Assembly (NCBI GenBank): GCA_051294375.1 | Contig: CM119268.1 | Location: 18,368,005 to 18,432,004 of the forward strand | Direction: 5' to 3' | Source: Paraspadella gotoi | Lineage: Eukaryota > Animalia > Chaetognatha | Length of the DNA: 64,000 bases | In this document: one piece after another, positions 714 through 44,387 of the stretch | How positions within the stretch are numbered: position 1 is the first letter of the stretch | Layout: each line of letters starts with the position of its first letter | Made by a program: the position numbers and the translations under genes | The notes under the pieces: generated by a model | Databases searched by the model: none | Told to the model about the DNA's origin: nothing | The model's input: only the letters and a program-made list of their open reading frames with translations

Positions 714-3700
714 CAGCCGGCATGACGGAAGCAAACGACGAAACAATGGTAAAGACCATCAGTGGCGTCATAAAACCTGCACTACCTCGACCTAAGTGAC
801 AACCTACGCAGAGTAGTGGAAGGAAAAAAAGGCTTTCACAGGAAAGGGATCAGCAAAATCCTGCGCCTCATCAACGGAAACAGGAAAATGTCACAATCCA
901 GATGAGCGAGGAGATGAAACATCTCAGTCACCATGGCCCAACTCATGAATGCCATCAACACTATGAGCAGAGACGTCGTCCGTGCTCGATCCGGCATCGC
1001 CGAAATCAAAACCATGCTGCAGGAAGGAGCCAATGCCAGAAGGCAAACAGGAGTACGCTGGGGCTGCTGGAGAATGGAACGCGATCCAAGTAGGGAGACA
1101 ATACGAGACTTGATTCGAGACTCAGTCAGGAGCGCCGCGGCGACAATCATAGAGCCAACAACAACAAGCCAAATGGGCACCGTTAAAATCGAGGGACGTT
1201 GTGATGACAAAAAACCAAGGGATTTCTTATGAGGCATTTACCAATCCCTCTGCAGATGCGACACAGACATTCGCACTATTGACGAGCAGCTGAAGGCCCT
1301 GTTTACCAGGGATTACAAGGTCAGTTGCTTCATCGATCCCATCGACGGCAGGCTCAACAAGGGCCTATGCGACGTTTTCGAAACCACCTCGATTAGCGCC
1401 TCGGAGATCGTGGACAAAAATGGAGATAAAAGTAGACCCAGAAATACACTCCGAGTATGGACTCGCACTAGTAAACGCCGTATATAGAAAATTCGACATT
1501 GTTGCCCCAGAAGACCAAGGCGCAGTGCCACACCACACAGCCCACCTGCTGAAAAAAGCATTAAGCCCGGGAGGTCATGGAATTCAGGGAATTCATCAAG
1601 ACCGGCAGGAGAAAGGAACTGGGAAGGAGGATCGAGTGGATCCTCCTTGGCTGGCTGGAGACACACGGACAACAGGCGACAGGTCGACGATTCATCAACT
1701 ATGTCAAGGACAACGATCGTCAAGTCTTCACAGACTCTACTACAAAAAGGCCTCACAGATAAAAATCCGGCCGAATCCAGCAAATGGCGACGGAGTCCGC
1801 GCCAGTAAAGGAAACAGAATTTCTGAAAAATTGTGCAAAAGCCGCCATCGCATCGCCATCGCAAGGACGACATCAAAATATTTGGTTTCATCATATCACA
1901 GGACAAGCTCAAACCCCAAAAGGACAAACTAGAACAAGCGGAGGTAAAACTGAAAGAGATAAAAACGCAGAAGGATCTGTGTGCGCTCTTCACTAAACTA
2001 CTACCGCTGCTTCACCCACTATATCTAATACCTGGCACAGCCGCTGCATGCCCTTACGCTGGTCAACAAAAGCGCGGCGTTGGAGACCCTGGAAACAGCA
2101 ATAAAGAACACGCCAGGCCTAAATTTCCTAAACCATGAGAAAATAAAAAATGGAGAATACAAAATCTACACCGACATGAGGTCTCATAACAGCCACGGCA
2201 AACGGGATAGAATACCCACTGTGCTTCCATTCGAAATCCTTTCCGGAGGAATACAGGATTAAGCATATTAACACCCTTGAAACCCTCGCCTTCAACATGA
2301 TGACAAGAAAATTCAAGGGCTACACCTGTGGAAGGCGAGTCACATTAGGCACGGACTCCCAGTACTTCAAAAGAGTAATGGACCTACAACATGAGCGACA
2401 AAAGCTACTACCGACAAACTAACTGAGATGGATTACAGAAATTAAGCAAGAAGTGCCACCCAGCAGAGGTCATACTAGTTAGACAACCAAGCCGACTTCC
2501 TCACCAGATTCACCGACCAGGGACAAATCACCCCGTTGACGGAAGATATGACCCAGGCTTTTGCAAAGACCCAATCAGTGGAGAAGCCTGGCCTGGGTAC
2601 CTTGAGCTACGAGTCAGAGGAGCACCAACATTAAGCATTACGGCTGATGTGCTCGACGTCGATGAAAAGGCTTTAGAAAAATTTTTTTCAAATACATCAG
2701 ATCAAGATTTGAAAAGAGTAAAGAGAACATACATAAACTCTACGGAACGCAAAAACAAAAGACGTCGACACTTTTGTCAGAACAATCTCGGCGAAAGACT
2801 GGACTATGGGCCACCCTGAGCTGGAAATGCTGGCCGACATGACGGGTCTCTGCATCAAAATACTCGATGAAAACTCCACAACGTCAACAGGGTGCAAATT
2901 CAAAAAGGTATACGGAAAAAGAAACCAGCCCAAACTGGGACAAGCATCGCTAATTAGCGAAACACCAGCGCTGATAAGAGTAACAAGGATGGCAACCGCA
3001 GAGGAAAAAGACAAAATAAAAGCCATAATGAACAAAATGATTCAAGATGGAATTACCCAGCCACATTTCAAGCCAGACGCAAAACAACTGCTTGGGGACC
3101 ACTTAGCACCGCCCGCACAACGGCGGAGAGCAAGAGACTTACCCTCACCCCAGCTTCACCAGCAAGGAGCATAGACGACACCAGGACAGTTCAACCACCG
3201 AGAGCCCGGAACCAAAACCCGGGCGCCGGTCCAATCAGGACCGCACTCACCTCAAATAGACGCAGAAGCGCCATCGACGAAGAAATAAGGAACAGAGTGG
3301 AAGTGACGCCAGATTCCGCCACGGGAGCATCCATCAATGTCGACGCGATCAATCTGGAGGAAGAGGAAGCCTTCCCACACCAACAAAATTAGCAGCTACT
3401 CCTGCTAAAAGAAAATATAAAGAAATGGCAAAACGAAGATGAGGATATTAAATCTGCAAAAACGATTTATGAAAATCACGGGTGCGAAGGACTTCGTAGG
3501 CATCTAGCAGCGACGCAGAGAAAGGCACTCACTCCAACGCAAGTCTTATTCATGAAGAATACTGATGAACTTCACATCACTAATGATGGAATCCTCCGCA
3601 TCATTGGATACAAAGACAATACCCGAATTATAAGGTACATTGTTCCAGAAAAAAACCTGGAATAAGTGGTCAAAAAGATCAATGATCAAAGATTAATGAA

Positions 3701-4900
3701 ATGGATTCCACGCCAACCATTGCGATCACGCCATGGGAATCCCTATGCATAGATGTCATGCATCTCCCACCCAGCGGAGGCATCAGTCACGTCATAGTGA
3801 CATCTGACAACGCCTCAGCCTACACCTGGGTGCTGCCAAACAGGCGAGCAGACGCACCGTACATTATTACCAGATGTACTATATGAGCTGTGTATCACCC
3901 AAGCCTAGGAGGCGCGCGCGGCCGCCATGAGAGTACACAGATCCCTGGCAGCCATAATGTTCAGAGGGGAACTCATCGTCACGGCAGACTGTAAGAAGAT
4001 GCTCGCGCTGAGAAGACAAACGGAAGACTGCTGGCAAGACTTGCCAATCAGCTACAGAGGATGAGTGGCTTTTTTTCCATCATGTGATTTTCCAACACAT
4101 GATAACCTCGTTATACAAAACTCCGTCCGATCCACCACCAATCTACGAGATCTACAAGGGTTTCCACAATGCCATCGAGCGCCCTTTCAGGAAGTACGCG
4201 ACACTGTCAACCTCGCTACCAAATGAGAGATCATTTGACCTCCAAAGTAGATCTCTATAACAACGTCGCCCGCTTTATGGACATGCACGGACAGGATAGG
4301 CACAAAATTTCAACGAACGCATGGGAGATTACGGCCGGATCACCTGCCTCACTATTCAGCTCCATCTTTGGGGATTCCAACTTCACAAAATGGTGGACAA
4401 AATTCACGTGAATCGCCCCACTCGTGGCTTTAGCCGCATCTCTCCTCGCCATCTGCTTCTGCTAACTCACGATGCGGACGGCGATTCGAGAAGCAAAAGG
4501 AGCAATGAATGAGTTGGACGCTTTCATCGCAGGAACCAACTTGGCTCAGTAAGGCGGGATAAACCCGCCGCCTTCGCCAACTGCAGCGGTCAGCTGCATT
4601 CCCCTCCATTCTGCCTCTCTCCACTCTCGGCGGGAAAGCCAGCAAAAAGCCAGTGAAAAACCAGCAAGAAGCCGAGGAAACCACGAGGTCCATCTCACCA
4701 GGACCAAACAAAGACCTCACCAAAACTCTATGACCGCAAGAAAGGCCATGGGACAATTGGAGGGAAGAAGAGGATTTGGGAGGTTAACAAAAGGGCCAAT
4801 AGGAACAAGGCTCGAGACTTTGTTTGAGATTCATTCTAGTTTCTAGGCTCACAAAAGAAAGAGCAATTTTTACTTACCTTTTATCCTTGCTGACCATTGG
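714..4900 (+). pseudogene. Decayed, internally deleted Ty3/gypsy-like env-bearing element related to 5528-16254
   Basis: Frameshifted fragments are homologous to gag (GRRKELGRRIEWILLGWL), RT/RNase H (DIKIFGFIISQDKLKPQ, NTPGLNFL), the OTU-like insert (MGHPELEMLADM), integrase (PWESLCIDVMHLP) and env (EITAGSPASLF). PPT and LTR start are deleted; LTR remnant at about 4590-4900. Confidence 0.9.
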
Positions 4901-5420: not shown

Positions 5421-5527
5421 TTCAAATTGTGACATATATATATAAATACATAACTATATATATATCAATATTTTTTAGTACAAGAAAGTTCATGATCAAC
5501 TATTCAAATTTTGATCGGCCTTACTGA

Positions 5528-5983
5528 CATCGACGATTAACTGAACTGCCGTGATACTGCGAGGAGAGAGGAATCTTCGAAGTAACGAAACAAGAGTTTT
5601 TATTCTCAGAATAAAATGTGATCACAAAATAAAGGATGAAATTCTTTGCTCTTTCTTTTGTGAGCCAGAAGAACCAAGTGACAAGCAAATTCACATCAAG
5701 CTTCTACCTCTACTTTTAGTTTCCGCTCCCTGACCCACAAGAGTCCCTTCCTTGTTCCCCATTGGCCCCCGACCCTGTGATCCCCTTCTACTCTTCTGTG
5801 ATTGGTTCGTGGTCCAAGTGTGGTCATAGAGTTGAGGGTAAGGTCTTTGTTTGGGCTTCTGGTGAGGTTGGCTTTGCCGCCGGCTGCTCCGCTGTGTCTG
5901 CTGCTTCTGCTCCTGCGTATGGGTTGGGGAGGCGAGAGAGAGAGAACCAGCAGCGGCGACCGCTGTGTCAGTGAGCGTTGATG
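5528..5983 (-). repeat. 3' LTR (456 bp)
   Basis: Homologous to 15810-16254. Sense-strand ends are CATCAACG...CGTCGATG. Contains CCAAT motifs and AATAAA. Confidence 0.92.
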
Positions 5984-7928
5984 CGTCCCCCCTCAGTTCG
6001 GCGAAGTAGGGGGGTTTATCCCGTCCTAGTGGAGCCACGGCTACTCCTGCGATCATGGCGTCCAGATTGTCTATTGCAGCCTCGATCTCTCTATTTGCGC
6101 AGCGCACGCATAGCTTGCAGCAGCAGTAACCGCAGCAGCTGAGGCACAAAATGGCTACCATTGCTGCTGTGACCGCGGCGATGATAGGGGCGGTACGCGT
6201 GAGGCTGGTCCACCATTTTGTCAGCTTTGTTTCCCCTAGGATGTCTCTAAAGAGGGAGGCTGGTGATCCGGCGGTGATCTCTCCCATTCTCTGGTTGAAT
6301 TCATGAGCCTCGCCTGTGTATTTGATGTGTAGGTCCATGAATTTTCCGACGTCGTCATATAAGTCTATTTCGGTTGTTATTTGTTCGTCTTTGTTGGGGA
6401 TTGTCGTAGTTAGTGATTTGAAGTTTTTGAACGGGCGTCCCTTTGCATCTCGGTATTCGCCGTTTGTTTTGTAGATTGGCGGCGGGTCGCAGGGCGTTTG
6501 GTACGACGTGCCGATCACGTGATGGTAAATGGCGTGTCGGTACGCAGCTCTACCTCGGTAACTGATGGGCAGGTCTTGCCAGCAATCTTTTGTGTCTCTT
6601 GTAAGGGCGAGAGTTCTTTTACAGTTCGCCGTTACCAACATTTCGCCCCTGAGAATGGCGATTTTCCCTTGATCGACGAAGGTTGTTGCAGCGGGGGATT
6701 TGTGCGCGTGTACGGCGGCTATACGCGCTTCTTTGGCTCTTGAGACGCAGAGCTCATGTCGGAGGGCGTCCGTGAGGCGGTTTATGCGTTGTGCGTTTCT
6801 GCCCGCCAGTTTAGACGCTTGTTCGTGTAGCGCCTCCATGACCTGGCTGTCTCTCTTCAACGTTGTCGGGGCGAGCGCCGATATGAAGAAATGCGGCGAT
6901 GATGTGGCATGCGCCACAAAGTCGCATCCTCTGATGGTTTCACTCTCCCCGGATACCTTCAGCACGAAGGACACATTCGCTTTCCCGCCGCAGATTTCCT
7001 GGCAGCGTTTGAGTTGGGCGGCGCTGTGATTTGCGTAGATGGCCGCGCACTTTGTCCAGCAATTTCCGGCCATCTTTGCCTTCTCCGGATTACTGCACTC
7101 GATTGTTTGCCTGTTCTTGCATCCGCCCAGCGTCGTCATGATGTCCGCTTCGGCCACGGAGCGGATCATGCCATCTTTTGTCGTGAAGACCGTCCCTTCG
7201 AAAGCAATGACCGCTCTACATTTTGCGTCTTTCCACGCTAGGATGCCACCTGGGTAGACGCAGGTGCGGCTTTGCGTGTCGCATCTCCCAGTTTTCGATC
7301 TGATTTCATCCGCTACTCGGATCCGTCGCGTGAAGAGGGTGAGGTTTGACACTAGTTTCGCGTTTTCTGACTCGTACGTGTGGTCGTGGAAATTAAATTT
7401 CTCACCCGTACAGTAGCCATCGGCGTCGTTCGTGCCAATGTGGTGGGTTATTATGTTCGTTCCCAGCTTTCCTTCCATCTCGATGGGGACGAGTATTCCC
7501 GTTTTGTCGCTCACTCTGATGGGCAGGCTATTTAGGGAGACTTTCTTTCCGTCGTGTAGGTCCAGGCATATTTCTCGCGGTAGCGAGAAATGATCGACGA
7601 CGTCGATGTTTGGGTATGGAATGTTCCATCTTCCACACACCCGGCCAGTGGCGACTACGGTTAGGTCACAGCCCTTTGCCTCGTGTTGTTCGTCATCCGG
7701 GACAAAGATGAGCCGTGTTTGTCCGACCTCTTCCTGGATCTTTCCGTTTTGCTCACAAGATTCGATGCTGAGTGATGTTGCTGTGTGATCCTGTGTAGCG
7801 TTGCAGTCGAAAACGGTGACTCGTCTCCCAAGTGTTTGTTCCACTATTTCATCCTTCGTTATTTGGGTCGTTTCATTTGCCATCGCTATGACGTACGCGA
7901 CGAGCATCATATTTTTGATGTTTATCAT
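5691..7928 (-). CDS. env: Env: class III-like viral fusion glycoprotein (herpes gB/chuvirus-type), 745 aa
   Basis: N-terminal hydrophobic signal (MMLVAYVIAMA). Cys pattern VFDC...C...C..R.CG...C...G.C.G..F, and C-terminal G.+A.+.GE....C......DCW.DLP+...TPC. N-glycosylation sequons; TM segment IIAAVTAAMVAILCL followed by a Cys cluster. Third ORF after pol. Confidence 0.85.
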   Translation of the reverse strand: MINIKNMMLVAYVIAMANETTQITKDEIVEQTLGRRVTVFDCNATQDHTATSLSIESCEQNGKIQEEVGQTRLIFVPDDEQHEAKGCDLTVVATGRVCGRWNIPYPNIDVVDHFSLPREICLDLHDGKKVSLNSLPIRVSDKTGILVPIEMEGKLGTNIITHHIGTNDADGYCTGEKFNFHDHTYESENAKLVSNLTLFTRRIRVADEIRSKTGRCDTQSRTCVYPGGILAWKDAKCRAVIAFEGTVFTTKDGMIRSVAEADIMTTLGGCKNRQTIECSNPEKAKMAGNCWTKCAAIYANHSAAQLKRCQEICGGKANVSFVLKVSGESETIRGCDFVAHATSSPHFFISALAPTTLKRDSQVMEALHEQASKLAGRNAQRINRLTDALRHELCVSRAKEARIAAVHAHKSPAATTFVDQGKIAILRGEMLVTANCKRTLALTRDTKDCWQDLPISYRGRAAYRHAIYHHVIGTSYQTPCDPPPIYKTNGEYRDAKGRPFKNFKSLTTTIPNKDEQITTEIDLYDDVGKFMDLHIKYTGEAHEFNQRMGEITAGSPASLFRDILGETKLTKWWTSLTRTAPIIAAVTAAMVAILCLSCCGYCCCKLCVRCANREIEAAIDNLDAMIAGVAVAPLGRDKPPYFAELRGDASTLTDTAVAAAGSLSLASPTHTQEQKQQTQRSSRRQSQPHQKPKQRPYPQLYDHTWTTNQSQKSRRGSQGRGPMGNKEGTLVGQGAETKSRGRSLM
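5986..5994 (-). promoter_or_regulatory. Polypurine tract (PPT)
   Basis: Sense-strand GAGGGGGGA, then 2 nt (CG), then the 3' LTR. Confidence 0.85.
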
Positions 7929-8304
7929 TTCGCCTCTTGTTACGATACGCTAAGGAATGTTTATTTACAGTCGATGAAGTATGCTAAGTATGCTAAGTAT
8001 TTTAAAGTTCAGGGCGAGGGAGGAAAAAAGCTTGTCCCTTTTTTTTTTTTTTTTGAATGTTCGGTGCGAGAGTTTTCCCGTTTTCTCCTATTTTCGATTG
8101 TGGTGAGTGATAGTTTGGGCATCGGCCCGCGTTTCACTCCTTGTTCGTTCGTCGTCCTTATTTTCGTCGTCGTCGTTTCTCCTCGTGCAGGGGGATCTCT
8201 CTCTTTCGCGATTTTGTTCTTTGTTCCTCCTTGCTCCTCCTAGGTCTAATTCCTACATGTCTGCAGTTTTTTTGCTTCGTCCCGTTTTTCTTTCTCTATT
8301 ACCG

Positions 8305-11300
8305 TTAGGATTTAAAAACGGGTGAGTCGCCTCCTGCCGCTTTTAGCCTTCGTCTGTGATAGGTGATGCGTTTTCCTGCTATCTCGACGATAAAATGGTT
8401 TCCTTTTATTTCTAGGATCTCGTGTGGGCCTGTGTATATGGTTTTCATCTTATTTGCGGCTGGCGCGGCTCCTGTGCGGATTAAGTCGCGTCTCACGTAA
8501 ACTCGGTCTCCTACGGCCAGCTTTTTTGGGTCGCGGAAGCGGTTTACTCTTTTCGATGTTCTATTTCTGATTCTGCGTTGCTCAGCGATCTTGTGCTGCG
8601 CTTCTTCCTGTCTGTCGGCTCTTAGTTTTGCATAATCAGATAGATATTCATAAGTTTCCTCGTCCGGAGCCTCGATTAGCCTGGGTTTGTGTCCGAATTG
8701 TAGTTCATGCGGGCTCATGTCCGTTTTCCATCCCGTTATGGGCGTGGCGTTGAGGGTGAGCAGTATGTGAGGCAGTTTCTTTGACCACGCCGTTGCATCG
8801 TCGTCAATTGCCTTTCTCAGCGCTTGTCTGATTCGGCCGATGTCCCTCTCGGCTCTGTTGCTGTTTTTTCTTGAGATTAGGGTCCTTCGTCCGCTTGTGT
8901 CAAGGAGATCGAGGAAACTCCGCATTTCTTCACCGTTCAGAGATGTAGCGCCGTCAAAATTTATTTCGAGGTAGCTCCCATGTAGTAGAAAAATGTTTTT
9001 GTCGAGGGCCGTTATAATGTTTTGCGCATCTGCTCTGCGGATGGGCAACGCCCACGTGTAGGCGGTGGCGTTATCGGATGCGACAACTACGTGGCTGATT
9101 CCGCCGCTGGTTGGAAGATGCATGACATCTATGCATAACGATTCCCACGGCGTTAGGGCGATGGTCGGTGTCGGATCCGTTTCGTTTAGGTGCACCTCGT
9201 CTGTCGTTCTTCTGCAGAGGTCGCACGTGAGTACGATATCCGCGCAGGTGCGTACCATTTCCGGGGCTGCGACGTACTGCGATACGAGGTACGCCGTTCG
9301 GTCGCGACCTGGGTGGCCTAGTTTCTCGTGAATCTTTTTTACTACTTCCCCGAGGTTCTTCTTCGGCACAACGTATCGAGTCGTCCGCGTGTTGATTTTG
9401 TAGCCGATGACGCAAAGTATGTCGTCTCTAGTGATTTCTAATTCCTCCGCGTTTTTCATTAGAAAGATTTGCGTTGGCGTTAGCGCTTTTCTTTGCGTCG
9501 ACATCAGATGCGCCTTTAATCCCATGGCGCCGTGATTTTTGTAAATCGTTTTTATTGATTTGATATCTTCATCTTCGTTTTGCCACTTTTTTACTTCGTC
9601 TATTAAGGGGAGGAGTTGGCTGTCTCGCTGTGTTGGTTGGTTTTCTTCCTCCAACAGGTCGAGTGCGTCCACCTCAATGGACGCTTCGGTGGTTGAGTCT
9701 GGCGGTATCTCGATCGCTTCGTCGGCCTCCCATGCGCTTCGGCGTCTCTCGTCCGCTCGCGGGTGGCGCCTCCTTTCGGGTCCTGGGCTTTGGTTGCGTG
9801 CCGTGGGCGGGGCCGCCGTCCTGATGTCACCCGTTCCGTTTTCCTGCGGCGCTGGCGGGCTTGCCGTCTTCCATTTCGTTGGGGTCGAAGGAGGCGAGAT
9901 TGGTGGCGGCACTGAAGGTGGCGCCGTATGCATGGGGCTTCGTGGTGGCGTTCGAGTTTCGCCACTTGCGCCGGGTCGTTTTATTTGGGATGTCGGCGGC
10001 GCTGCCTCTCTAGTTTCGTCTTGAGGTTTCGTCGCTGGTGGCCCGGGTTTTTTTTGTGTTTCATTCGTTGTTGGGATCCTGTAGATGATTGTTGTGTTCG
10101 CTGGGAGATCTTCTTTCTTTCTCTGCCTTGGTGGTGGCGCGAGGCGTTCAGCGTATGGTATGTTTGAGTTCGGTCCCAACCATTTTTCCGTTATGGCATC
10201 ATTGATGATATCTTTTGTGATGACTTTAATTTCCTTCTTTTCTTTTTCAGTAGCATTCGCGACTCTGAGGTTTGCGGACTCGTCCGCTATCAAGGAAGCT
10301 TGGCCTGTTGTTGTCCTGAAGATCTTCAGTTCTCGTTGATCGTTTGTTCCGTACGTCTTTTCGAATTTGCATCCGGCCGGCGTAGTGACGTCTTCGTCTA
10401 AGATTCTGATGCGGATGTCGATCATGTCAGCGAGCATTTCCAGTTCCGGGTGTCCGAGCATCCAATCTTTTGCCGAGATGCATCTTATGAAAGTGTCAGC
10501 GTCTTTTGTTTTTGGTTCCCCGTAAAGCTTCTTTATGTTTTCTCTTTTCTTTTCGAATTCCTTCCTGACAAAATTGAAAAAGGTTGTTCGAAAAAGTTTT
10601 TCGTCTATTTTCAGGGTGGCGGCGACGACGCTAAGTGTCGGTGCTCCTCCGACTCTCAGTTCTAAGTGGCCCGGCCATGCGCCGCCGCTTATCGGGTCTT
10701 CGCTGTAACCGGGTTCGTACGTGCCTTCGATGTTGAAACCAGCGGGCATGAAGGGCGTGTCTAGCGGGGTTATCTGGCCCTGTTCGGTGAATCTCGTGAG
10801 AAAATCGGCCGGGTTATCTTCGCTCTTCACGAGTATCACTTCGTTCGGGTGACATTCTTGTCTTATTTCGGTTATCCATCGTAAGACGTTGGTTGGGAGT
10901 AGTTGTTGTCGGTCGTGTTGAAGGTCCATCACCCTTTTGAAGTATTGTGAGTCGGTGATTAATTTTACTCGTCTCCCGCAGATATAGCCTTTGAACTTTC
11001 TGATCATCATGTTAAAGGCTAATGTTTCGAGTATGTTTATGTGTTTGATCTTATATTCGTCGGGAAATGATTTTGAGTGGAAACTTAACGGATACTCTAC
11101 GCCATTTGCTGTCGCCGTTATAAGTCCTCCCATTGCGCTGGTGCTGGCGTCAGCGTATATGCGGTATTCCCCGTTCTTTATTTTTGCGTCGTTTAAAAAA
11201 TTTAGTCCCGGAGTGTTTTTGATTTCGCTGACTAGTGTTTCTAGGGCCTCTCGATGCTTTCCTTCGAACTTAAAGCTGCTTTTGTCGACCAGCGTGAGTG

Positions 11301-13854
11301 CGTGTAACGGTTGTGCGAGATAAGAAAACCTGTGAGTAAAGCATCTGTAGTAGTTTAGTGAGGCCAGGAGGGCGCGGAGATCCTTTTGCGTCTTGATCTG
11401 CTTCAGTTTGATCTCGGCTTGTTCCAGCTTTTCCCTCTGTGGTTTCAGCTTATCCTGCGAGATGCTAAAGCCGAGGATCTTGATGTCGTCCTTCCTTAGT
11501 AGGACGCTTTTTGTCCACTTTAAGACGACGTTTTCTCGTCTACATATTTCCAGGAATTCTCGCAGGCGCTCTGCCATCTCCTCGGGTGATCTCGCTGTTA
11601 GGATGAGGTCGTCGACGTAAATGAGGAAGCTCTTTACGTCTCTTCCGAGGTCCGCGAAAATCTCGTCCAGGATGGCCTGCAGCACGTTTACACTGTTTAC
11701 TCCGCCCATGGGGAGCTTATTCATGTGCCAGTTGTGTCCTGCGCCTGCGAAAGCGGTTACCGGTTTGCATTTGTCCGCCAGATTTACCTGGTGAAAACAC
11801 GCCAGGATGTCGACCGAACATTGTAGTTCGTGGGGTTTGTATTCCTCTAAGATTGAGGCGATTGTCTGTGGCTCTGTCGCAAAGGTTGAGATGTTATCAT
11901 TTACAGCTGATAAGTCGCAGATTAGCCTCCATTGTTTCGCGAATGTTTCATCGTCCATTTGGTCTTGGTCGTTGGCGATGTGATTGGGTTTCTTTATCAA
12001 AAAGGCATTCGAATAAGCTTCTCCAGATGTTCTGGAGACGACTCCAGCTTTCTCGTAGACTTCGAGATATCTTTTGAGGGCTGCCTTCTTCACTGGGCCT
12101 TGATTCACGAATCTTGGTTTTGGTAAGCCTTCTGTCGTGTAGCCAAGGTCGACTCTATAATTCAGGAATCCTTCCTTGCAGTCGTTTATTGATTCCCCAA
12201 AAACGTCTCTGAATTCCCAGACTGTTTCCCAAACTATGGGAGCTTTGTCAATGAGGGATGGGTCAATTTCCTTAAACGGGCGTAGAAATTCGTCCTTCCC
12301 TCGGTCGTCGTGCTTCTGACGTCTCCTTCTTCTCGCTTCTTCTACCGCTTCCAGTTCCGCTTCTGAAGGTGTGTGTTTAACAATCTTCGTTGGCGGTATG
12401 TTTTCTTTGCGTACTCGTCGTAATTTTGGTCTTTCCCCTGTTAAATCTGCCTGGATTGGTCTTGCAATACAGTCCGGATCCAGATTTAAATTCGTCTTGG
12501 CTTCTTCCGTGACGATTAGTTTTGCTTCTCCCCATTCGCCGGGTTCGCCTGGCAGTTCCACCCCTTGTTTTAGGTGCTCGCCTGATACTGTGCACGCCGT
12601 CTCGCCGTCGCGGGATTGTAGGATCCACTTTGCCTCCGCGAGCGACTTCCAGTAAACCCTGGCTGCTCTCACCACGAGGTTCCCCGTCTCGTTCCTTTCT
12701 GCGTAGAGCGGTACCTGTGTTTTCTCGTCAACACACTTTCTTGCAAGCCATCTTGCTGCTTTTAGAGCTGACTGTTTGTCCTTAAAGAGATGCGTAACCG
12801 GTTTTCCCGCCATGTGTGCTACTTGTAGACCTTTCTTTTCGGCTGGGGTGACGATCCACATCTCATTGGCTGGCCCTGGGTCGGTTGTGGCCGTTCCGAT
12901 TATCACGTCCCTGTCCTCTTCGTCTGGGGATATGAAGAAGGTCGTGTCCAGTATCCAATTTTGGAACATGACTCTGAGATTGATGCGGTCTCTGATGACG
13001 ACGTTTCCGTTTCCTGTCGATACCCGGAGTGGTGGGCCGGAGTAGATTTTGCTCGTCATTGACCATTCGTCTACAAACTTCTTCGGGATAGTGTTTATCG
13101 ATGCCCCTGTGTCGTAAAGGCAGCTCGCTGGGGCTCCTCCTACCACTGCTGGGATGTAGCTGTTGCTGTTGAAGTTGATTTTTCTTTTTGTGTCATCCCT
13201 AGGTGGCGGGTCATTTCGTGGGTGGGGCGGATGGGTTTGCAGCGGACTCGTTGGTAAAGGGGGGGGTTCCATTTCACCTTTTGTATCTTCCGGGGTTATT
13301 ATTTCTCGGATGAAGACCTCCGGTTCATGACAACTTATTTCCGCTTTCCTTATCGTTGCCTGGTGTAGGGATTCGCCTTTTGCATCACCGACGATGGAAT
13401 AGGTTGGGTTGTAGATTGCCTTCCTGCATCTTGTGCTTAGGGTGGCCACTCGTGGCCTTAGGCGATTCAGTCGTGACTTTCCTCTCGACTCTGGTGTCAG
13501 CGGCCTTTCTGCCGGTAGTGTGTCGGCGTCTCTACTTTCGGTTTCATCGTCACTTGTTGATAAACTTTCACCTTCGTCTTGCGAGGGTAATTTGTTTCCT
13601 TTCTTTTTGCATAACTTCTTGCATATTTTCAACCTTTTTACAAAAGCTTTCTTTTCATTTAGTGCCCAGTTTTTCCATGGCTGTAGGCTTTCCTTTACTA
13701 TTTCTAGTGCTAATCTTTTCTTTTCACTTTCCTCAAGTGGATTGAAAAGTCTGTGGAGGCGCACTGCGGCTGTTCTTCCAGTAAATTTTAGTGCTGCTTT
13801 CGCGCATTCTTTTAAATGCGTTTGATTTCGTCCCGATGGCATCTCTTTGGCCAT
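8305..13854 (-). CDS. pol: Pol polyprotein (PR-RT-RNase H-[OTU-like, Pro-rich]-integrase), 1849 aa
   Basis: PR: LYDTGAS. RT: WRLICDL, LPMG, IYVDD, ILGFSIS, NYYRCF. RNase H: YADAS, ILETLA, ITDSQ, NPADFLTR. IN: HEKLGH...CDLC, CIDV/FDGA/AER, GPY/F-like YTGPHEI. Domain order and motifs are gypsy-type. Confidence 0.95.
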   Translation of the reverse strand: MAKEMPSGRNQTHLKECAKAALKFTGRTAAVRLHRLFNPLEESEKKRLALEIVKESLQPWKNWALNEKKAFVKRLKICKKLCKKKGNKLPSQDEGESLSTSDDETESRDADTLPAERPLTPESRGKSRLNRLRPRVATLSTRCRKAIYNPTYSIVGDAKGESLHQATIRKAEISCHEPEVFIREIITPEDTKGEMEPPPLPTSPLQTHPPHPRNDPPPRDDTKRKINFNSNSYIPAVVGGAPASCLYDTGASINTIPKKFVDEWSMTSKIYSGPPLRVSTGNGNVVIRDRINLRVMFQNWILDTTFFISPDEEDRDVIIGTATTDPGPANEMWIVTPAEKKGLQVAHMAGKPVTHLFKDKQSALKAARWLARKCVDEKTQVPLYAERNETGNLVVRAARVYWKSLAEAKWILQSRDGETACTVSGEHLKQGVELPGEPGEWGEAKLIVTEEAKTNLNLDPDCIARPIQADLTGERPKLRRVRKENIPPTKIVKHTPSEAELEAVEEARRRRRQKHDDRGKDEFLRPFKEIDPSLIDKAPIVWETVWEFRDVFGESINDCKEGFLNYRVDLGYTTEGLPKPRFVNQGPVKKAALKRYLEVYEKAGVVSRTSGEAYSNAFLIKKPNHIANDQDQMDDETFAKQWRLICDLSAVNDNISTFATEPQTIASILEEYKPHELQCSVDILACFHQVNLADKCKPVTAFAGAGHNWHMNKLPMGGVNSVNVLQAILDEIFADLGRDVKSFLIYVDDLILTARSPEEMAERLREFLEICRRENVVLKWTKSVLLRKDDIKILGFSISQDKLKPQREKLEQAEIKLKQIKTQKDLRALLASLNYYRCFTHRFSYLAQPLHALTLVDKSSFKFEGKHREALETLVSEIKNTPGLNFLNDAKIKNGEYRIYADASTSAMGGLITATANGVEYPLSFHSKSFPDEYKIKHINILETLAFNMMIRKFKGYICGRRVKLITDSQYFKRVMDLQHDRQQLLPTNVLRWITEIRQECHPNEVILVKSEDNPADFLTRFTEQGQITPLDTPFMPAGFNIEGTYEPGYSEDPISGGAWPGHLELRVGGAPTLSVVAATLKIDEKLFRTTFFNFVRKEFEKKRENIKKLYGEPKTKDADTFIRCISAKDWMLGHPELEMLADMIDIRIRILDEDVTTPAGCKFEKTYGTNDQRELKIFRTTTGQASLIADESANLRVANATEKEKKEIKVITKDIINDAITEKWLGPNSNIPYAERLAPPPRQRKKEDLPANTTIIYRIPTTNETQKKPGPPATKPQDETREAAPPTSQIKRPGASGETRTPPRSPMHTAPPSVPPPISPPSTPTKWKTASPPAPQENGTGDIRTAAPPTARNQSPGPERRRHPRADERRRSAWEADEAIEIPPDSTTEASIEVDALDLLEEENQPTQRDSQLLPLIDEVKKWQNEDEDIKSIKTIYKNHGAMGLKAHLMSTQRKALTPTQIFLMKNAEELEITRDDILCVIGYKINTRTTRYVVPKKNLGEVVKKIHEKLGHPGRDRTAYLVSQYVAAPEMVRTCADIVLTCDLCRRTTDEVHLNETDPTPTIALTPWESLCIDVMHLPTSGGISHVVVASDNATAYTWALPIRRADAQNIITALDKNIFLLHGSYLEINFDGATSLNGEEMRSFLDLLDTSGRRTLISRKNSNRAERDIGRIRQALRKAIDDDATAWSKKLPHILLTLNATPITGWKTDMSPHELQFGHKPRLIEAPDEETYEYLSDYAKLRADRQEEAQHKIAEQRRIRNRTSKRVNRFRDPKKLAVGDRVYVRRDLIRTGAAPAANKMKTIYTGPHEILEIKGNHFIVEIAGKRITYHRRRLKAAGGDSPVFKS

Positions 13855-15574
13855 TTGTTTTATTTCATCTGCGGCGTGCTGCGCTAACTGCCGCTTTCAT
13901 CCTTTCCTGGGATGTACTCTGCCTATTTCTGTTTCTTCGATATATTTTCTCTTACTTTTCATGAAATTTAATTTCTTATCAGAGTAAACATTTTCAGCGT
14001 CTCAACAACAAGGAAATCTCTACGTCTGGAATCGAATTTGTTCCTCGGTCTTCCCCTGTAGGATCTGTCTCCCCAACGGCCTTCGTTCCTTTCTTCGCGG
14101 CGTTCCCGGCCGTCATTTCTGGCGCGGTAGTCGCGGTTTGGCTTTTCTCGCCATTTTTCGATCATCCTTCTTCTCGTCCTTCTTTTCCGTTCATCAGGGT
14201 GGCCATGTCCTTGGTGAGCTTTTCCAGTAATTCTCGTGAATTATTCGCTTCCTGTAGCATGGCCCCCTGGTAGAGGGCGCTGGCGCTTTCTGCTGGGTTC
14301 TTATCATTCAATCCTTTCTGCAGGAGGGAGTCGGTGAGGACTTGACGGTCATTATCCTTGACGGAGTTGATGAAACGTCTCCCCTTTGCTTGGTTTCCGT
14401 GGGTCACCAGCCATCCGCGGAGGATCCATTCGATTCGTTTCCCTAGGTCCCTTTTCCTTCCTTTTTCGATGTAGGAGCGGAAATCCATCGCTTCCTGTGC
14501 GATCCCTGGAGCGTAGGGTGTCAAGGCCTTCGTCAGCAGACGTGCGGTGTGCCTTGGGACTGCGCCTCGTTCTCATTCCTCCGGTGCGACGACGTCGAAC
14601 TGCGATATACCTCGTTACCAAGGCGAGGCCTGCTCCGCGTGTACTCCGGTTCGACTTACTTCGACGCGTCCGCCACCTCCGAGGCTGAGATTGATGTTGA
14701 CTCGAAGATGTCGCATAGTCCTTGTAGAGACTACCGCCTATCGGGTCAAGAAGCAGCTGACCTCGTAGTCTCTGGTGATAAGGCTTGGAGTTTTCATCCA
14801 CGTTGTGACGTCGACCCTGCATCTCGCAGGGACTGATAGATCCCTCGTAGGAAATCCTGGGGTTTTCTCGGCTCGTCGTTTCTCTATCTTATCGTGCTGA
14901 TTCTGGGCGTGGCTTCCGCGCGGCTGGGGCATATTCTCGACGGGGAGGGTCGCGGCTATCGTCGCGTATGGTTTCGCGGCTGTAGTCACGCCTCCGTCTA
15001 AATGTTCCGATGTCGCGGTCCGTCTCTCCACGGTCTCCGTCGTCCCGTCGGTCGTCGTCTCCGTCGTTCTCGCAACAAGTTCATTATTTCTGTTATGTTG
15101 CTGTTGTCTTGTTCACCGTGTCTTTTATGATTCCACGGTGTTATGCAACTGTCCGAACTTTTCAGATAATTTATGTTTTCCACCTTGTTGTCGTTACTAG
15201 CGGAGCATTTCTCTGAACCCATTGAGTGATCTCCGCCTTTTCCAGCTGCGACGTTTCGTAGGTTCGTTGAAGTCCAGTTGGTGAGTCGTCCTCCGTGAGG
15301 AGATTTCAACGCGGCCTCCGTGTCCTTGTCGTTTCCCTGCTGTTTTTGTCGTTTACCGTCATTTTGCTGAGTCCGGATGTGACGTCGTTGATGTCGTCGG
15401 CTGCGCGATTGCGCTTTGACTTCCGGAGCCATGATCGACATCCCAGTCGTGGATCGAGGTATGTCCTACCATCATGGATCTTTGCGGACGCGGTAACGGC
15501 TGGTCGGGCGTCGGGGCCGATGGATGCATGTTTTTCTCCGCCATTTCTTTCGTTTCGTTTTTCTTTCCTTTTTG
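13855..15574 (-). pseudogene. gag: gag region broken into overlapping short ORFs
   Basis: Pieces 15359-15601, 14998-15441, 14738-15031, 14352-14822, 14162-14524 and 13968-14165 chain by small frameshifts. They match the decayed copy (RDY.VSCF.DPI.G.L; LGKRIEWIL.GWL). No CCHC knuckle seen. Frameshifts may be assembly errors. Confidence 0.7.
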
Positions 15575-15791
15575 CGTGAGCTTATCGACGGCCTTCGTCA
15601 AGTTTGCCCAAGACGCAGATTTCTTATGACGTCAACTTGGCTGTTCTTCAGAGTTCTTGTTTGTTCGTTGCGCACTTTGTTCGCTTTCGAAAATAACCTT
15701 TTTCCTTGTGGTAGCGGGTCGTGGTTGGCGGCGTGGGGCGATTTCGATTTTCGACGAGTTTAAAATTGTCGATTTTCGAAGTTTCTTTCGC

Positions 15792-15809
15792 ATCTCGTGT
15801 GTGACACCA
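15792..15809 (-). promoter_or_regulatory. Primer-binding site
   Basis: TGGTGTCACACACGAGAT directly after the 5' LTR. The first 8 nt match the tRNA-Leu-type PBS TGGTGTCA; tRNA identity uncertain. Confidence 0.7.
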
Positions 15810-16254
15810 CATCGACGATAACTGAACTGCCGTGATACTAAGAGGAGAAGGAATCTTCGAATAACGAAACAAGAGTTTTATTTCTCAGAATAAAAATGTG
15901 ATCACAAAATAAAGGATGAAATTCTTTTGCTCTTTCTTTGTGAGCCAGAAGAACCAAGTGAAAACAAATTCACATCAAGCTCTATCTCTACTTTTAGTTC
16001 ACGCTCCTAACCCCACTAAGTCCCTGCCTTGTTCCCCATTGGCCCCCGCCCGTATGATCCCTTCTACTCTACTGTGATTGGTTCGTGGTCCAAGTGTGGT
16101 CATAGAGTTTAGGGTAGGTCTTTGTTTGGGCTTTTGGTGAGGTCGCTTGCCCGGCTGCCTCTGCTGCTTCTGCTGCTTCTGCTCCTGCGTATGGTTGGGG
16201 AGGCGAGAAAGAGGAAACAGCAGCCGGCGACCGCGTGGTCAGTGAGCGTTGATG
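15810..16254 (-). repeat. 5' LTR (445 bp)
   Basis: Direct repeat of 5528-5983 with scattered substitutions and 1-nt indels. Confidence 0.92.
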
Positions 16255-16745: not shown

Positions 16746-17815
16746 CTTTCCTGTGGTAACCTTTCATCTATCATAACAGGTTGGCACATGAAATTAAAAT
16801 GATCTATTTCAAAAGATTCTGGACTTAAATCGTCCTTAATGGCGTTGTTCCAATATAAATATTTGCATTAGACAAAATTTGCTCTTGTGTCAGTTGAATA
16901 TTCACTAATTTTCCTTCAAGGGCCGTTCTCCAAAAATAACCCTGTGAAGAGACAGTAATTATTGTTATATGTTAGTGATAGAACCGTTCAATTTAAGCAG
17001 TCCCTGAGCTTTGGATCAGGCTGTAACACCGTGTTACAGGCGGGTTAAGCGCCCCGTCCTTCTTAACTGCCAGGCGACCACCGGGCTAGAACCCTGGACC
17101 TTTGGGTTGGGGGGCGAATGACTTGCCTCCGGCACCAATGGCCACTGATGAACGGTTGGTGGATTTTAGTGCACCATACATCCCCCCCTTGCGTAGGGAA
17201 AAGTCTGTTGCGTCTCTTCAGTGAATTGTTGGTGGAAAGTTCGTCACCAAGTTGAGGCATGTTGCCTGATGTGTTGTGGGCGGAAAGTGCATCGCCAGGT
17301 GGAGGCATGTCACCTGAAAATGTTGTTGTTGCTGTTGTGTTCGGAAATCGGGCTCACCAATGAAGAAACAGTAATTATTGTTGTATGTTAGTGATAGAAC
17401 CGTTCAATAAAAGCAGTCCCTGAGCTTCGGATCAGGCTGTAACACCGTGTTACAGGCGGGTTAAGCGCCCCATCCCTCTTAACTGCCAGGCGACCACCAG
17501 GCTAGAACCCCGGACCTTTGGGTTGGGAGGCGAATGACTTGCCTCCGGCACCAATGACCGCTGATGAACGGTTGGTGGATTTTAGTCCACCATACCTGTT
17601 TATTTATTGGGCAGGTCAATAGTTTCACTTCCTCATTTTTTGTGAAGTAAACAAACATCTCGTTATCCCTAAAAATTCAGTCGAAAGCGTTAAATTATGC
17701 ATAATTTCCTGTATTATTTTCTGAACATTTTTGGTATTGATTTGAAGGTTAATAAACTGTTCTTATGCTGTTGGTATTTAAAGTTATAGCTGAACCTTCA
17801 ATTATTGAGGCTAGA
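16746..17815 (-). CDS. GAF-coding exon of the PDE-like gene, interrupted by the 16945-17594 element and frameshifted
   Basis: Removing the element and one TSD restores EVKLLTCPINKQGYFWRTALEGKLVNI, followed by FMCQPV. Donor AG|GTAAC at 16746. Confidence 0.6.
16997..17070 (-). ncRNA. Twister ribozyme-like motif (family A 3' LTR)
   Basis: Same fold. L4 TCCAAAGC mismatches the CGG pseudoknot partner at one position, and P2 has a substitution. Confidence 0.6.
17413..17486 (-). ncRNA. Twister ribozyme-like motif, P5-type permutation (family A 5' LTR)
   Basis: GCAGTT-AAG-AGG-GA-TGG-GGCGCT-TAA-CCC-GC-[CTGTAACAC/GTGTTACAG]-C-CTGA-TCCGAAGC-TCAG-G-GACTGC, i.e. P5, P2, catalytic GA, pseudoknot, P1, UAA cleavage site, P3, P4 and the L4 U-NNN-AAGC loop. 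P2 is one nt short. Confidence 0.75.
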
Positions 17816-18223
17816 CATTCTTTAAAAGTTAACTATTAATAATGATTAAAGTTATATTCAACTTTAACATTTAATTTTTAAATTAATGATTAACTTCTGT
17901 CAATTCTTATATTAATTGTATCTTAAAATTGGTATAATTTATTGTTTTAACGTCATTACAAGTACAGTTAAAATGCTGTTTAATATTAATATTTTTATAA
18001 TGGAGTATTACAGTGCTGAACAAAACATTATAAATGACAAATATTTTGACCTAGGGGTGGGACCCTATATCCATAGAAAATTTTAACGTCTTGCCCTGTC
18101 TGAATGATTTGAGATACAATAATAAAATGAGTGGTAAAAGTGTTTTTGGCTTTTTACTTTCATATACAATGAAAAAAATTTAAGCAACTACAAGGCGTCG
18201 TGGATGTTTTCAAAACATTGAGT

Positions 18224-18476
18224 TATGGCAACAGCCGGGTTGCCTGTGATGCATCTCAGTGGGGCATCTCACTGTTGGCTTTGGGGGCTTCCGACCCTCA
18301 GTGACGCCTCCAGTCACTGGCGCGGTTACCCTAGGACGGTCTCGCTTTGCCAACGCAGAGGGAAGTCGTTAGGACTGTGGATGGAACACTACGCCTGGGA
18401 TGGTGTGTTCCCCCTCTGAGCCAATGGATTTGGCTGACGGATGGTGGACGTGAGGCGGTGTGAATATACCGCCACA
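18224..18476 (-). mobile_element. Family B solo LTR (253 bp) carrying a twister ribozyme
   Basis: Perfect TSD GAGT; sense ends TGTGG...GCCATA; 5' hairpin GGCGGT/ACCGCC; empty site in the duplicate copy near 20192. Confidence 0.9.
18274..18354 (-). ncRNA. Twister ribozyme, P5 type (best canonical copy)
   Basis: GTTGGC-AAA-GCGA-GA-CCG-TCCTAGGG-TAA-CCGC-GC-CAGTGAC..GTCACTG-AGGG-TCGGAAGC-CCCC-AAA-GCCAAC. Pseudoknot CCG/CGG; predicted cleavage between 18328 and 18327. Confidence 0.85.
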
Positions 18477-19133
18477 GAGTCGTTTTTTTGTGCGCGCATT
18501 GTATTGCACACGATAAAAGCCATACTTGTTAATATTTTTCACTAGTCGTTTCTGAACATGACAGTGTTATGTCTTATCTTCAATTCACTTCATTTTAAGA
18601 TTTTAATCACTATCCTAGTTATACCTATTTAATATTTATTTTTAGTTCAGGTATATAAGTAAAACAAAATTTTACGAAGATTATAATGAATATGCTTAAA
18701 TTGTCGAATACTTTGTATTTCTTACCTTTTTGACGATTTTATTATGTATTAAGAAATCTTACATGATAAATTTAATTATCTGACAATATCGTTAATAATT
18801 TTTTTGATAAAAGTTAGTTTTATTAAAAATTAAACCATAATAGTAACTTATACAAATCTTACCTGCTTACTTTAATTTTTTTTAACCAAAACACCATGTA
18901 CACCTTACTATACTACATTATTATACTCAAATAAGTGCTTCCAAAAATATTTTTAACTTTTATATATTAGAATGAGATTCAACAGTAAGTATTCAAACAT
19001 TTTTCTTCCAAACCGCGCATCCGTCTGTCCGTCTGGCCACCCTTAGCAAAAAACTCCAATTCCTCGTGATTGGATGGTTGAACCCACACTCCCACAGATG
19101 ATACACATCACCCAACCAAAGAACATGAGAGAT

Positions 19134-19342: not shown

Positions 19343-21562
19343 AGATTAACTTTACACTAGACATGTATGACGACAATGCTCAACAGAATCGAGCTTCAAA
19401 CAAGTTTGAACAAACAACGTCGGATCTGCCTATGATAATTAAGCGGTATAAAGTATAAAGTATAAAGTATAAAGCTAATCCAATGTTATATCACGATAAT
19501 TCTTTCTTTCAATTTGTGATCTAAACAGATCATAACAAATCAAGACATAAAAAATCATGACAAATCTATAAATCAATTGATCAATCAATCATTACCAGAT
19601 CAACGCATCAATGCATGAACCATTTTAATTACCATTTAACGGTAGACATTTTGTGAAATCCTTTCTTTTGTTGTGTTTGGATTAAGAAAAAGTTTGAAAT
19701 CGATTCTACAACAATTTATTTTTGAGACAGTAAACATTAAGGCAGGCTAAAATTGCACACTTTTTATAACTTTTAGTTCTCTCAAGATTTTTTTCCCTAA
19801 GTTGTAGTTCATTCAAATAGCGATGTCGCCGGCNNNNNNNNNNNNNNNNNNNNNNNNNTCTCGATGTATTAGCTCTAATACTCAAAGATTACGCATGTTA
19901 TGCTGAATGACCTTTCCTCTTTAACGTCATTACAAGTACAGTTAAAATGCTGTTTAATATTAATATTTTTATAATGGAGTATACAGTGCTGAACAAAACA
20001 TTATAAATGACAAATATTTTGACCTAGGGGTGGGACCCTATATCCATAGAAAATTTTAACGTCTTGCCCTGTCTGAATGATTTGAGATACAATAATAAAT
20101 GAGTGGTAAAAGTGTTTTTGGCTTTTTACTTTCATATACAATGAAAAAAATTTAAGCAACTACAAGGCGTCGTGGATGTTTTCAAAACATTGATCGTTTT
20201 TTTGTGCGCGCATTGTTATTGCACACGATAAAAGCATACTTGTTAATATTTTTCACTAGTCTGTTTCTGAACATGACAGTGTTATGTCTTATCTTCAATT
20301 CACTTCATTTTAAGATTTTAATCACTATCCAAGTTATACCTATTTAATATTTATTTTTAGTTCAGGTATATAAGTAAAACAAAATTTTACGAAGATTATA
20401 ATGAATATGCTTAAATTGTCGAATACTTTGTATTTCTTACCTTTTTGACGATTTTATTATGTATTAAGAAATCTTACATGATAATTAATTATCTGACAAA
20501 TCGTTAATAATTTTTTTGATAAAAGTTAGTTTTATTAAAAATAAACCATAATAGTAACTTATACAAATCTTACCTGCTTACTTTAATTTTTTTTAACCAA
20601 AACACCATGTACACCTTACTATACCACATTATTATACTCAAATAAGTGCTTCCAAAAATATTTTTAACTTTTATATATTAGAATGAGATTCAACAGTAAG
20701 TATTCAAACATTTTCTTCCAAACCGCGCATCCGTCTGTCCGTCTGGCCACCCTTAGCAAAAATCCAATTCCTCGTGATTGGATGGTTGAACCCACACTCC
20801 CACAGATGATACACATCACCCAACCAAAGAACATGAGAGATTGCAAAGAAAGTAATTATTATTATGTGCTAGTGACAGAACCGTTCAATATAAGCAGCCC
20901 TGAGCTTCGGATCAGGCTGTAACACCATCCCTCTTAACTGCTAAGCGACCACCGGGCCAGAACCCAGACCTTTGGGTTGGGAGGCGAAAGACTTGCTTCC
21001 AGCACCAATGACCGCTGATGAACGGTTGGTGGATTTTAGTCCACCATAAGATTAACTTTACACTAGACATGTATGACGACAATGCTCAACAGAATCGAGC
21101 TTCAAACAAGTTTGAACAAACAACGTCGGATCTGCCTATGATAATTAAGCGGTATAAAGTATAAAGTATAAAGTATAAAGCTAATCCAATGTTATATCAC
21201 GATAATTCTTTCTTTCAATTGTGATCTAAACAGATCATAACAAATCAAGACATAAAAAATCATGACAAATCTATAAATCAATTGATCAATCAATCATTAC
21301 CAGATCAACGCATCAATGCATGAACCATTTTTAATTACCATTTAACGGTAGACATTTTGTGAAATCCTTTCTTTTGTTGTGTTTGGATTAAGAAAAAGTT
21401 TGAAATCGATTCTACAACAATTTATTTTTGAGACAGTAAACATTAAGGCAGGCTAAAATTGCACACTTTTTATAACTTTTAGTTCTCTCAAGATTTTTTT
21501 CCTAAGTTGTAGTTCATTCAAATAGCGATGTCGCCGGCGATTCACGCAAGAGTCGCAGGTGT

Positions 21563-22625
21563 GGTTCTAGTTGGTTGGCGACTTAGCCATGACGCCCTCG
21601 CCATTTGGCGATTTAGCTGTAAACTACATCTAGCGTTCTAGTTATGGCGATTTCGCTAACTAAACTCAGATTAGGGTTAGGGTTAGGGTTGAGTTGGTTA
21701 GGGTTAGGGTTGAGTAGGTAGTAGTTAGGGTTAGGGTTGAGTAGTTTAGGGTTAGGGTTGAGTAATTTAGGTTAGGTTGAGTTAAGTTAAGTTTATTTTA
21801 GGCTTATTATTAATGTCAATTTTAGGGATAGGGTAGGGAGGGTGTTGTTGATGACCAAGAGGCCCGCGTTAGGGTTAGGGTTGAGGCACGGAGATGTACG
21901 GGAGGCCTGGGCCCGGTTAGGGTTAGGGTTGGGAGAGAGGCCCGTGGGTTATATATCGAAGGCAATAAGGGTTAGGGTTGAGGTACGGAGATGTACGGGA
22001 GGCCTGGGCCCGGTTTAGGGTTAGGGTGGGAGAGAGGCCTGTGGGTTATATATCGAAGGCAATTAGGGTTAGGGTTGAGGTACGGAGATGTACGGGAGGC
22101 CGGGCCTGGTTTAGGGTTAGGGGAGAGGCATGGAGTTGAACGGGAGGCTTGGTTTAGGGTTAGGGTTGCGGGAGGGACCCATGGTTGATGCATCGAAGGC
22201 GGTTAGGGTTAGGGTTGAGGCACGGAGATGTACGGGAGGCTGGGCCTGGGTGAGGGTTAGGGGAGAGGCATGGAGTTGAACGGAGGCTTAGTTTAGGGTT
22301 AGGGTTGGGGGAGGGGGCCCGTGGTTGATGCATCGAAGGCGGTTAGGGTTAGGGTTGAGGCACGGAGATGTACAGGAGGCTGAGCCTGGGTTAGGGTTAG
22401 GGGAGAGGCACAGAGTTGAACGGAAGGCTTGGTTTAGGGTTAGGGTTGGGGGAGGGGCCCGTGGTTGATGCATCAAGGCGGTTAGGGTGTGCTCATCCCG
22501 TGTTAGCTGCGCTTTTCATTATATTCGCTACTTTTATCACTGGCGAGGTCGCCAGTGGGGGACTGGCGAACATCGCCAAAGCCCTGGCGATATCGCCATG
22601 GCGAAGTCGCCAACCAACTAGAACC
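21563..22625. mobile_element. MITE-like element with about 30-bp TIRs enclosing a TTAGGG-rich minisatellite
   Basis: ggttctagttggttggcgactt.gccatg / catggcgaagtcgccaaccaactagaacc; internal units of about 85-140 bp punctuated by GGGTTAGGGTTAGGG. Confidence 0.7.
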
Positions 22626-44130: not shown

Positions 44131-44387
44131 TGTGGTGAATTCTAAATTCGCTTCCCGTGTAGCTTGGTGAAAATCAGCTCGACCCATTGGCTTGGACAGC
44201 TAAGAACTCGTTCACCAACCGTTAGTTCCTGTTTCAATCCCCTCACGGTCTCGCTGGTTAAAGTGTAATGGTGTCGGCATAAACACGCCAGTGACATGCT
44301 GTTGTCACTGCAGGTGCAAAGCCTTGAACGTCAGCTGTCAGAAGATGCCTCAAACCCGGGCATCACAACTGTCCCCCTGTTACCATA
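44131..44387 (+). mobile_element. Family C solo LTR (257 bp) with twister motif at 44253-44335
   Basis: TSD AAAT; TGTGG...CCATA ends; GCTGG-TTAAA-GTGT-AA-TGG-TGTCGGCA-TAA-ACAC-GC-CAGTGACA/TGTCACTG-CAGG-TGCAAAGC-CTTG...TCAGC. The catalytic G position is A in this copy. Confidence 0.88.

Follow-up and report, generated by a model that had tools for sequence, protein, structure and literature searches.

We confirm from the sequence that positions 18274 to 18354 of the 64,000-nucleotide stretch analysed here (the window) carry a twister-type fold, which lies inside an LTR of a TRIM, a small LTR retrotransposon that lacks coding capacity. Comparison of three LTR families, which we call A, B and C, supports the view that this fold has been under selection as a twister and is not a set of chance hairpins. 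Our preferred reading, to which we give a probability of roughly 0.55, is that the twister would self-cleave the transcript in both LTRs and release a unit-length RNA, probably circularised, which a Gypsy-type partner would reverse-transcribe in the manner of a plant retrozyme. Features are collected in Table 1, and comparisons with published systems refer to the available portions of the papers cited.

The fold lies on the minus strand, which the original prediction of a twister did not specify. A function of the plus strand was considered and rejected, because the core motifs are absent there. Read 5′ to 3′, the family-B motif begins with P5 (GTTGGC), the 3′ arm of P2, GA, the T1 triplet CCG and a short P1 hairpin, and continues through U^AA (U18328/A18327), the 5′ arm of P2, GC, a 7-bp P3 and P4, which closes on U-CGG-AAGC, before returning to P5 (GCCAAC). 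Twisters are described as having P2 and P4, optional P3 and P5, the pseudoknots T1 and T2, and the motifs GA, U^AA, GC and U-NNN-AAGC (PMC5408937). The predicted twister topology, the catalytic G, the U^A step, the conserved L4 and the complementarity for both pseudoknots are indeed present, and the stems (P2 and P4 together with P3 and P5, with the termini in P5) are those of a type-P5 twister (RF02684; PMC5408937). The T1 (3 bp) and T2 (GC/GC) complementarities can be traced in family B, in the family-A copy at 43674 and in reads of family C. All of the relevant L1 and L4 nucleotides, namely the general-base G, the cleavage-site A, the U·A pair and the G-C that extends P4, are kept in families B and C.

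The motif differs from the type-P5 class in several details. P1 is minimal, comprising only 1-2 bp that close a short loop; in the published description P1 is conserved yet dispensable for cleavage, and the G-C extending P4 is essentially invariant (PMC5408937). Family A has A-U in place of this near-invariant G-C atop P4 and a P2 of 3 nt, two of whose three pairs can form. In family B three of four P2 pairs can form, the exception being a C·A that adjoins L1. This C·A is not among the variants reaching at least 5% in three public runs; since it shows no variation at that level, we take it to be the family-B state rather than decay, and the idea that the mismatch reflects damage was dropped.

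Table 1. Positions, strands and particulars of the features discussed; all positions are those of the window.
Feature	Positions	Strand	Particulars
Family-B type-P5 twister fold, 81 nt	18274-18354	minus	Predicted cut at U18328/A18327, following LTR nt 149
Family-B solo LTR, 253 bp, TGTGG...CCATA	18224-18476	minus	Boundaries and TSD
GAGT, left copy of 4-bp TSD	18220-18223	plus	Right copy at 18477-18480
Putative Pol III A-box-like (18423-18413) and B-box-like (18387-18379) motifs	18379-18423	minus	From regular-expression matches
Duplicate of family-B flanks lacking the insertion	19920-20512	plus	Empty site near 20193
B-like element with two LTRs, old and decayed, 212 + 195 + 218 bp	42929-43553	plus	Ribozymes broken; no exact TSD
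Complete family-A element, 650 bp	16945-17594	minus	LTRs 17594-17361 and 17178-16945; exact 4-bp TSD
PBS TGGTGAGCCCGA	17348-17359	minus	1 base past 5′ LTR; 11/12 like tRNA-Trp PBS (Kojima Fig S2)
Polypurine tract (PPT)	17181-17190	minus	2 nt ahead of 3′ LTR
tRNA-Gly(CCC)-like 73-mer, LTR nt 34-106	17489-17561	minus	Relaxed ARAGORN; stops two bases before ribozyme
Family-A twister, 5′ LTR	17413-17486	minus	T1 with one G-U; cut predicted after U17463
Family-A twister, 3′ LTR	16997-17070	minus	T1 and P2 mismatches; cut predicted after U17047
Family-A solo LTR	41797-42029	plus	TSD ATAT
Family-A solo LTR	43674-43906	plus	TSD GTAC; T1 intact; 7-nt deletion at P5
Family-A two-LTR element with deletions	40235-40775	plus	TSD GTAG
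Family-C solo LTR (copy C1)	44131-44387	plus	Twister 44253-44335; TSD AAAT
Family-C solo LTR (copy C2)	54250-54506	plus	Twister 54381-54453; TSD 3/4 matching

The claim of three divergent families, each an LTR, holds on the evidence of LTR ends, TSDs and an empty site. In three public runs, contig ends cluster at 18223/4 and 18476/7, the ends of the family-B LTR, and in three of four runs an empty-site joint, 18220-18478, skips 257 bases (253+4). Exact 4-bp TSDs flank six of the eight tabulated elements of families A, B and C; three of four bases match at one, and none is found at the old element at 42929-43553. Family-A LTRs start with TATGG and end with TTCA, and those of B and C start with TGTGG and end with CCATA, the usual TG..CA pair occurring in neither group.

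Family A, by its sequence, is a Helenus-like TRIM. The complete element at 16945-17594 is shorter than 1 kb and has two LTRs, a PBS, a PPT and no coding capacity; its interior is 182 bp and non-coding, and its 234-bp LTRs differ at 13/234 sites. With a ribozyme in both LTRs, a PBS, a PPT, a 4-bp TSD and no ORF, it also has the layout of an LTR retrozyme. A SINE was rejected as an identity for these elements: a SINE has a TSD of variable length and a 3′ tail and lacks a PBS and a PPT, whereas these elements have a TSD fixed at 4 bp, constant ends and both a PBS and a PPT. Decay affects most copies of family A (12 LTRs examined). The LTRs of the old element at 42929-43553 match family B with z of 12.4 and 13.3; its PBS is present, beginning as that of family A does, and its PPT is degenerate. 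Since this B-like two-LTR element measures 625 bp, the B lineage is TRIM-sized as well. As a lead only, in run X10 (organism B), which yielded just 2 and 1 contigs, one low-depth contig at 18223-18412 has a family-B LTR and, directly behind it, this same start of the PBS and an interior resembling that of family A.

A tRNA-like segment precedes the ribozyme. In the family-A copy at 40584 it passes ARAGORN at -ps90, as does one of 1,000 shuffles; no tRNA was called in the family-A LTR at the default ARAGORN settings, and Rfam gave no tRNA family over 40250-40360. Families B and C have only A-box-like and B-box-like motifs, weaker in C than in A and weak in B, where the B-box-like motif (18387-18379) carries one mismatch at a short spacing from the A-box-like one and ARAGORN, relaxed settings included, finds no tRNA at 18379-18423.

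It is very improbable that the motif is a set of GC-rich hairpins that arose by chance, became homogenised through template switching and only look like a twister. Twister descriptors, drawn up after the motif had been seen, gave three matches in the window against none in 1,481 block-wise dinucleotide shuffles in the strict form, and seven against five in the loose form; the strict result argues against chance. What speaks for chance is that P3 and P4 are local hairpins, that folding z-scores of the twister sites are modest (-2.4 to 0.0) and that Rfam gives no match at threshold: a scan of the full window at the gathering score was empty, and a search of 16800-18600 at E≤10 returned no twister. 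In short-stretch searches, however, a twister family ranks first or second. Twister-P5 scored 19 bits (E 0.053; gathering 37.6) on family-C copy C2, and twister-P1 scored weakly on family B (15.2 bits, E 1.1; gathering 67.2), with no copy reaching the gathering threshold of RF02684 or RF03160. We consider that such scores tell against membership of the curated Rfam family and not against twister-like folding. For family B, ViennaRNA prefers a rival nested fold, lower than the twister skeleton by 9 kcal/mol, and gives P2 and P4 pair probabilities of at most 0.02, in both cases with pseudoknots uncounted. Scans with B/C-type and A-type stem patterns found nothing in metagenome contigs and nothing in viral contigs, collections in which animal DNA is rare and which are thus uninformative on range.

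Compensatory change also argues against chance hairpins, including in T1 and P2, which compensate although they are long-range. The T1 triplets are CGG/CCG in family A and CCG/CGG in family B, as originally predicted. The TGG/CCA that had been deduced for family C is borne out as well, since the deviating bases 44267 and 44316 of copy C1 are private to that copy: in run X1, 99% and 91% of depth, respectively, carry the letter first proposed, and runs X5 and X9 agree. Tallied by hand, the stems whose register is fixed show 10 compensated changes and 3 broken pairs, the former being double changes that keep pairing in T1 (2), P2 (2), P3 (3, with the old B-like copy counted) and P4 (3). For the long-range T1 and P2 only, the count is 4 compensated against 2 broken, with a binomial probability of 2e-4 to 2e-3 that is rough, as it rests on hand counts and assumes independent sites. 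The three P5 stems (GCAGTT/GACTGC, GTTGGC/GCCAAC and GCTGG/CCAGC) are present as quoted, but they cannot be aligned between families, so their differences do not amount to site-by-site compensation as had been suggested.

Because MAFFT misaligns family A against B and C, pair counts by tool were limited to B, C1 and C2, and family A was tallied by hand. Among these three sequences, from which the structure was itself derived, 92% of cells are paired and 5 pairs are changed on both sides, a result that 4 of 500 shuffles attain; when the register is slid, 28-47% are paired. A covariance model for which B, C1 and C2 were the sole input, with rough E calibration, recovers 6 of 12 held-out copies of family A with E≤0.005 (scores of 17-26.5 bits and E values from 7e-6 to 5e-3) and the old B-like copy at 32 bits, the best unrelated site scoring 8.6 bits. 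Outside the ribozyme, family A has weak similarity to B and C (z 1.9-3.0), whereas homology between B and C is clear on either side of it (whole-LTR z 8.7).

Present variation in family B points in the same direction. Places with variation at 5% of depth or more amount to 0/62 in the ribozyme core, 2/19 in the ribozyme loops and 11/122 upstream; the contrast between the core and the loops plus upstream sequence (13/141) has a Fisher p of 0.007, calculated without places 18251-18262, where indels cluster locally beyond the ribozyme, and with part of the variable upstream places being private to the copy at 18224-18476. Hence, frequent family-B variants within the ribozyme are confined to a loop in the public runs. 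The double-sided changes, the recovery by the held-out model and the location of family-B variants outside the core together uphold the proposal of selection on the twister fold, with covariation that spans three lineages only and an alignment below the size for R-scape. The core itself is retained in representative copies, as was claimed, but not in all: three of 12 family-A LTRs lack it and two of 12 pass the strict descriptor. One family-C copy has the GA to AA change, as stated.

Several known systems resemble these elements in part. Plant LTR retrozymes (Cervera et al. 2016, PMC4918200) are likewise non-coding, with a 4-bp TSD, a ribozyme in each LTR, a PBS, a PPT, solo LTRs and a presumed Gypsy partner. 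They carry a type III hammerhead, measure 1-1.5 kb and have a Met PBS, whereas here we find a twister, 650 bp and a Trp-like PBS, together with a tRNA-like internal promoter and an animal host; furthermore, plant retrozyme RNAs are highly structured and the circle predicted here is not. The elements would therefore work like an LTR retrozyme, but without a hammerhead they are not retrozymes in the strict sense. Animal non-LTR retrozymes (PMC7229834; 10.64898/2026.07.22.740005) are also small animal retroelements with self-cleaving ribozymes, but these are type I hammerheads in tandem repeats, linked to Penelope, with no LTR, PBS or PPT. In reviews and in a 2026 preprint, LTR retrozymes are portrayed as mostly plant elements that rely on hammerheads, and the retrozymes of animals as non-LTR.

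A link between twisters and retrotransposons has been described for RTE elements, which are of the non-LTR kind (PMC8501958, PMC7761336). The T-variants of Perere-3 RTE (Liu et al. 2021, PMC8501958) are animal retrotransposon twisters with a proposed role in RNA processing, as here, but they occupy the 5′ end of an element that is coding and non-LTR, and have P1 completed by the target site, whereas the whole ribozyme is LTR-internal here and occurs twice per element. In the same report, an LTR-type RT lies downstream of 1.6% of variants (PMC8501958).

Also close in layout are the Helenus TRIMs, or TRIMp3 (Kojima 2024, PMC10886601), which share a length below 1 kb, a 4-bp TSD (in animal Helenus), a PBS and a PPT. 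The tRNA-like A/B-box segment in the Helenus LTR (PMC10886601) has a clear counterpart in family A, a weaker one in C and a weak one in B, and Helenus termini are TG..CA (PMC10886601), compared with TG..TA or TA..CA here. The available text of that paper contains no description of a ribozyme ("twister" is absent, and "ribozyme" appears in one reference title), and inspection by eye of the animal consensus LTRs in the available supplement (PMC10886601) revealed no twister. Two gall-wasp consensus sequences in DataS1 of PMC10886601, Helenus-2_SyJa-LTR and Helenus-2_SyUm-LTR, do appear by eye to hold a complete type III hammerhead just past the tRNA-like segment, with complementary loops I and II and a PBS of the tRNA-Trp type; this hammerhead goes unmentioned in the paper's text as available. 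Also by eye, it sits where the twister sits in our elements, in the same layout (PMC10886601).

A SINE insertion has been proposed as the origin of Helenus (Kojima, PMC10886601), and schistosomes have SINEs that combine a promoter with a ribozyme. It is thus conceivable, although doubtful, that the twister is a passenger from a tRNA-headed SINE inserted in an ancestral LTR, and is inactive or irrelevant to transposition. The non-canonical pairs fixed in families A and B and the failure of 10/12 family-A copies to match the strict descriptor would agree with such an origin. A passenger is expected to decay, however, as the ribozymes of the old element at 42929 have done, and instead changes are compensated between LTR-bound families and the present variation of family B spares the core.

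If the ribozyme serves transposition, as in our preferred reading, Pol III would initiate transcription at the tRNA-like segment, and the transcript would be cut roughly 100 nt further downstream in each of the three families, after LTR nt 132 (A), 149 (B) or 150 (C1). No run of five or more T was found on the sense strand of the 8 elements checked, which is compatible with Pol III read-through. Cleavage at U^A would leave a 5′ hydroxyl and a 2′,3′-cyclic phosphate, and cuts in both family-A LTRs would free a 416-nt RNA with no terminal repeat. For such an RNA ordinary strand transfer would be impossible, so a circle would be needed as the template; the same argument from the missing R region has been made for plants, where a cut retrozyme RNA regains full LTRs only via a circle (PMC4918200). 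Ligation would be favoured by the P5 permutation, as P5, P2 and T1 keep both cut ends tied. The circle would then be primed at the PBS and copied by the enzymes of the partner, for which the 4-bp TSDs suggest the Gypsy type, following Kojima (PMC10886601). Source copies would be the target of selection, and inserted copies would decay.

Some observations sit less easily with this reading. Twister 5′-hydroxyl ends were ligated poorly in published work (PMC8782182), which counts against it. The predicted family-A circle has unremarkable stability (z -0.75), no tandem multimers were seen within the window, the sole complete element (16945-17594) has a damaged 3′ ribozyme, and the Gypsy element of the window has a PBS different from that of family A. 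The low Rfam scores, the rival fold and the P2 C·A of family B, the minimal P1 and the loss of the P4 G-C in family A count against the preferred reading as well. Alternatively, an active ribozyme might operate in a linear cycle, in which a slow cut, or one made mainly in the 3′ LTR, sets the 3′ end of a Pol III read-through RNA and leaves a repeat of about 100 nt, from start to cut, for strand transfer. We regard this as unlikely, though less so than a SINE passenger. The weak P1 and P2 and the competing fold are suggestive of slow or context-dependent cutting, and both the start-to-cut distance shared by the three families and the ordinary stability of the circle would fit; nevertheless, the same ribozyme is present in both LTRs, and the 5′ copy has more time to cut.

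The window also contains a Gypsy-type element at 5527-16254 (minus strand), with its own LTRs at 5527-5983 and 15809-16254 that are 89% alike. Families A, B and C are not LTRs of this neighbour, whose LTRs are unrelated and have no twister. It has an open PR-RT-RH-IN frame of 1,863 aa at 8305-13896 and a 752-aa env-like frame that matches the Monjiviricetes fusion glycoprotein PF24664 (E 2e-11); its gag region has short frames only. A degraded relative lies in the opposite orientation at about 1200-4750 (plus strand), with inverted matches of 70-77%. Elsewhere, near-identical local duplicates occur next to N gaps (17946-18800 and 19920-20512, 19138 and 20846, 27581 and 29190), some with scattered indels, and may be uncollapsed haplotypes or a sign of noisy assembly. 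Tandem units of 97 and 140 bp, organised around TTAGGG repeats, occupy 21871-22474. The TTAGGG units, AT-rich repeats and nearest RT clusters that come mostly from Mollusca, Arthropoda and Chordata would fit an animal host.

A full-text literature search, which covered a minority of subscription papers, yielded no description of a twister in an LTR element or TRIM. A broader proposal, which we offer tentatively and at slightly less than even odds, is that these elements represent overlooked animal LTR retrozymes: TRIMs driven by Pol III, in which circles made by a ribozyme would replace terminal-repeat transfer and the class of ribozyme would be interchangeable, a twister in these elements and a hammerhead in the two gall-wasp Helenus families. 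Three TRIM families whose LTRs each keep a twister under selection would mean that this strategy evolved anew, with a different ribozyme and in a different host. The elements would also offer a small, high-copy system with exact predictions (the cut site, the 416-nt unit and its junction) for the reverse transcription of Pol III-driven TRIMs. In a tested animal case, the role of the twister is the 5′-end processing of a non-LTR element (PMC8501958). If our reading is true, genomic twisters would have a second biological role, and animals a new source of small circular RNAs.
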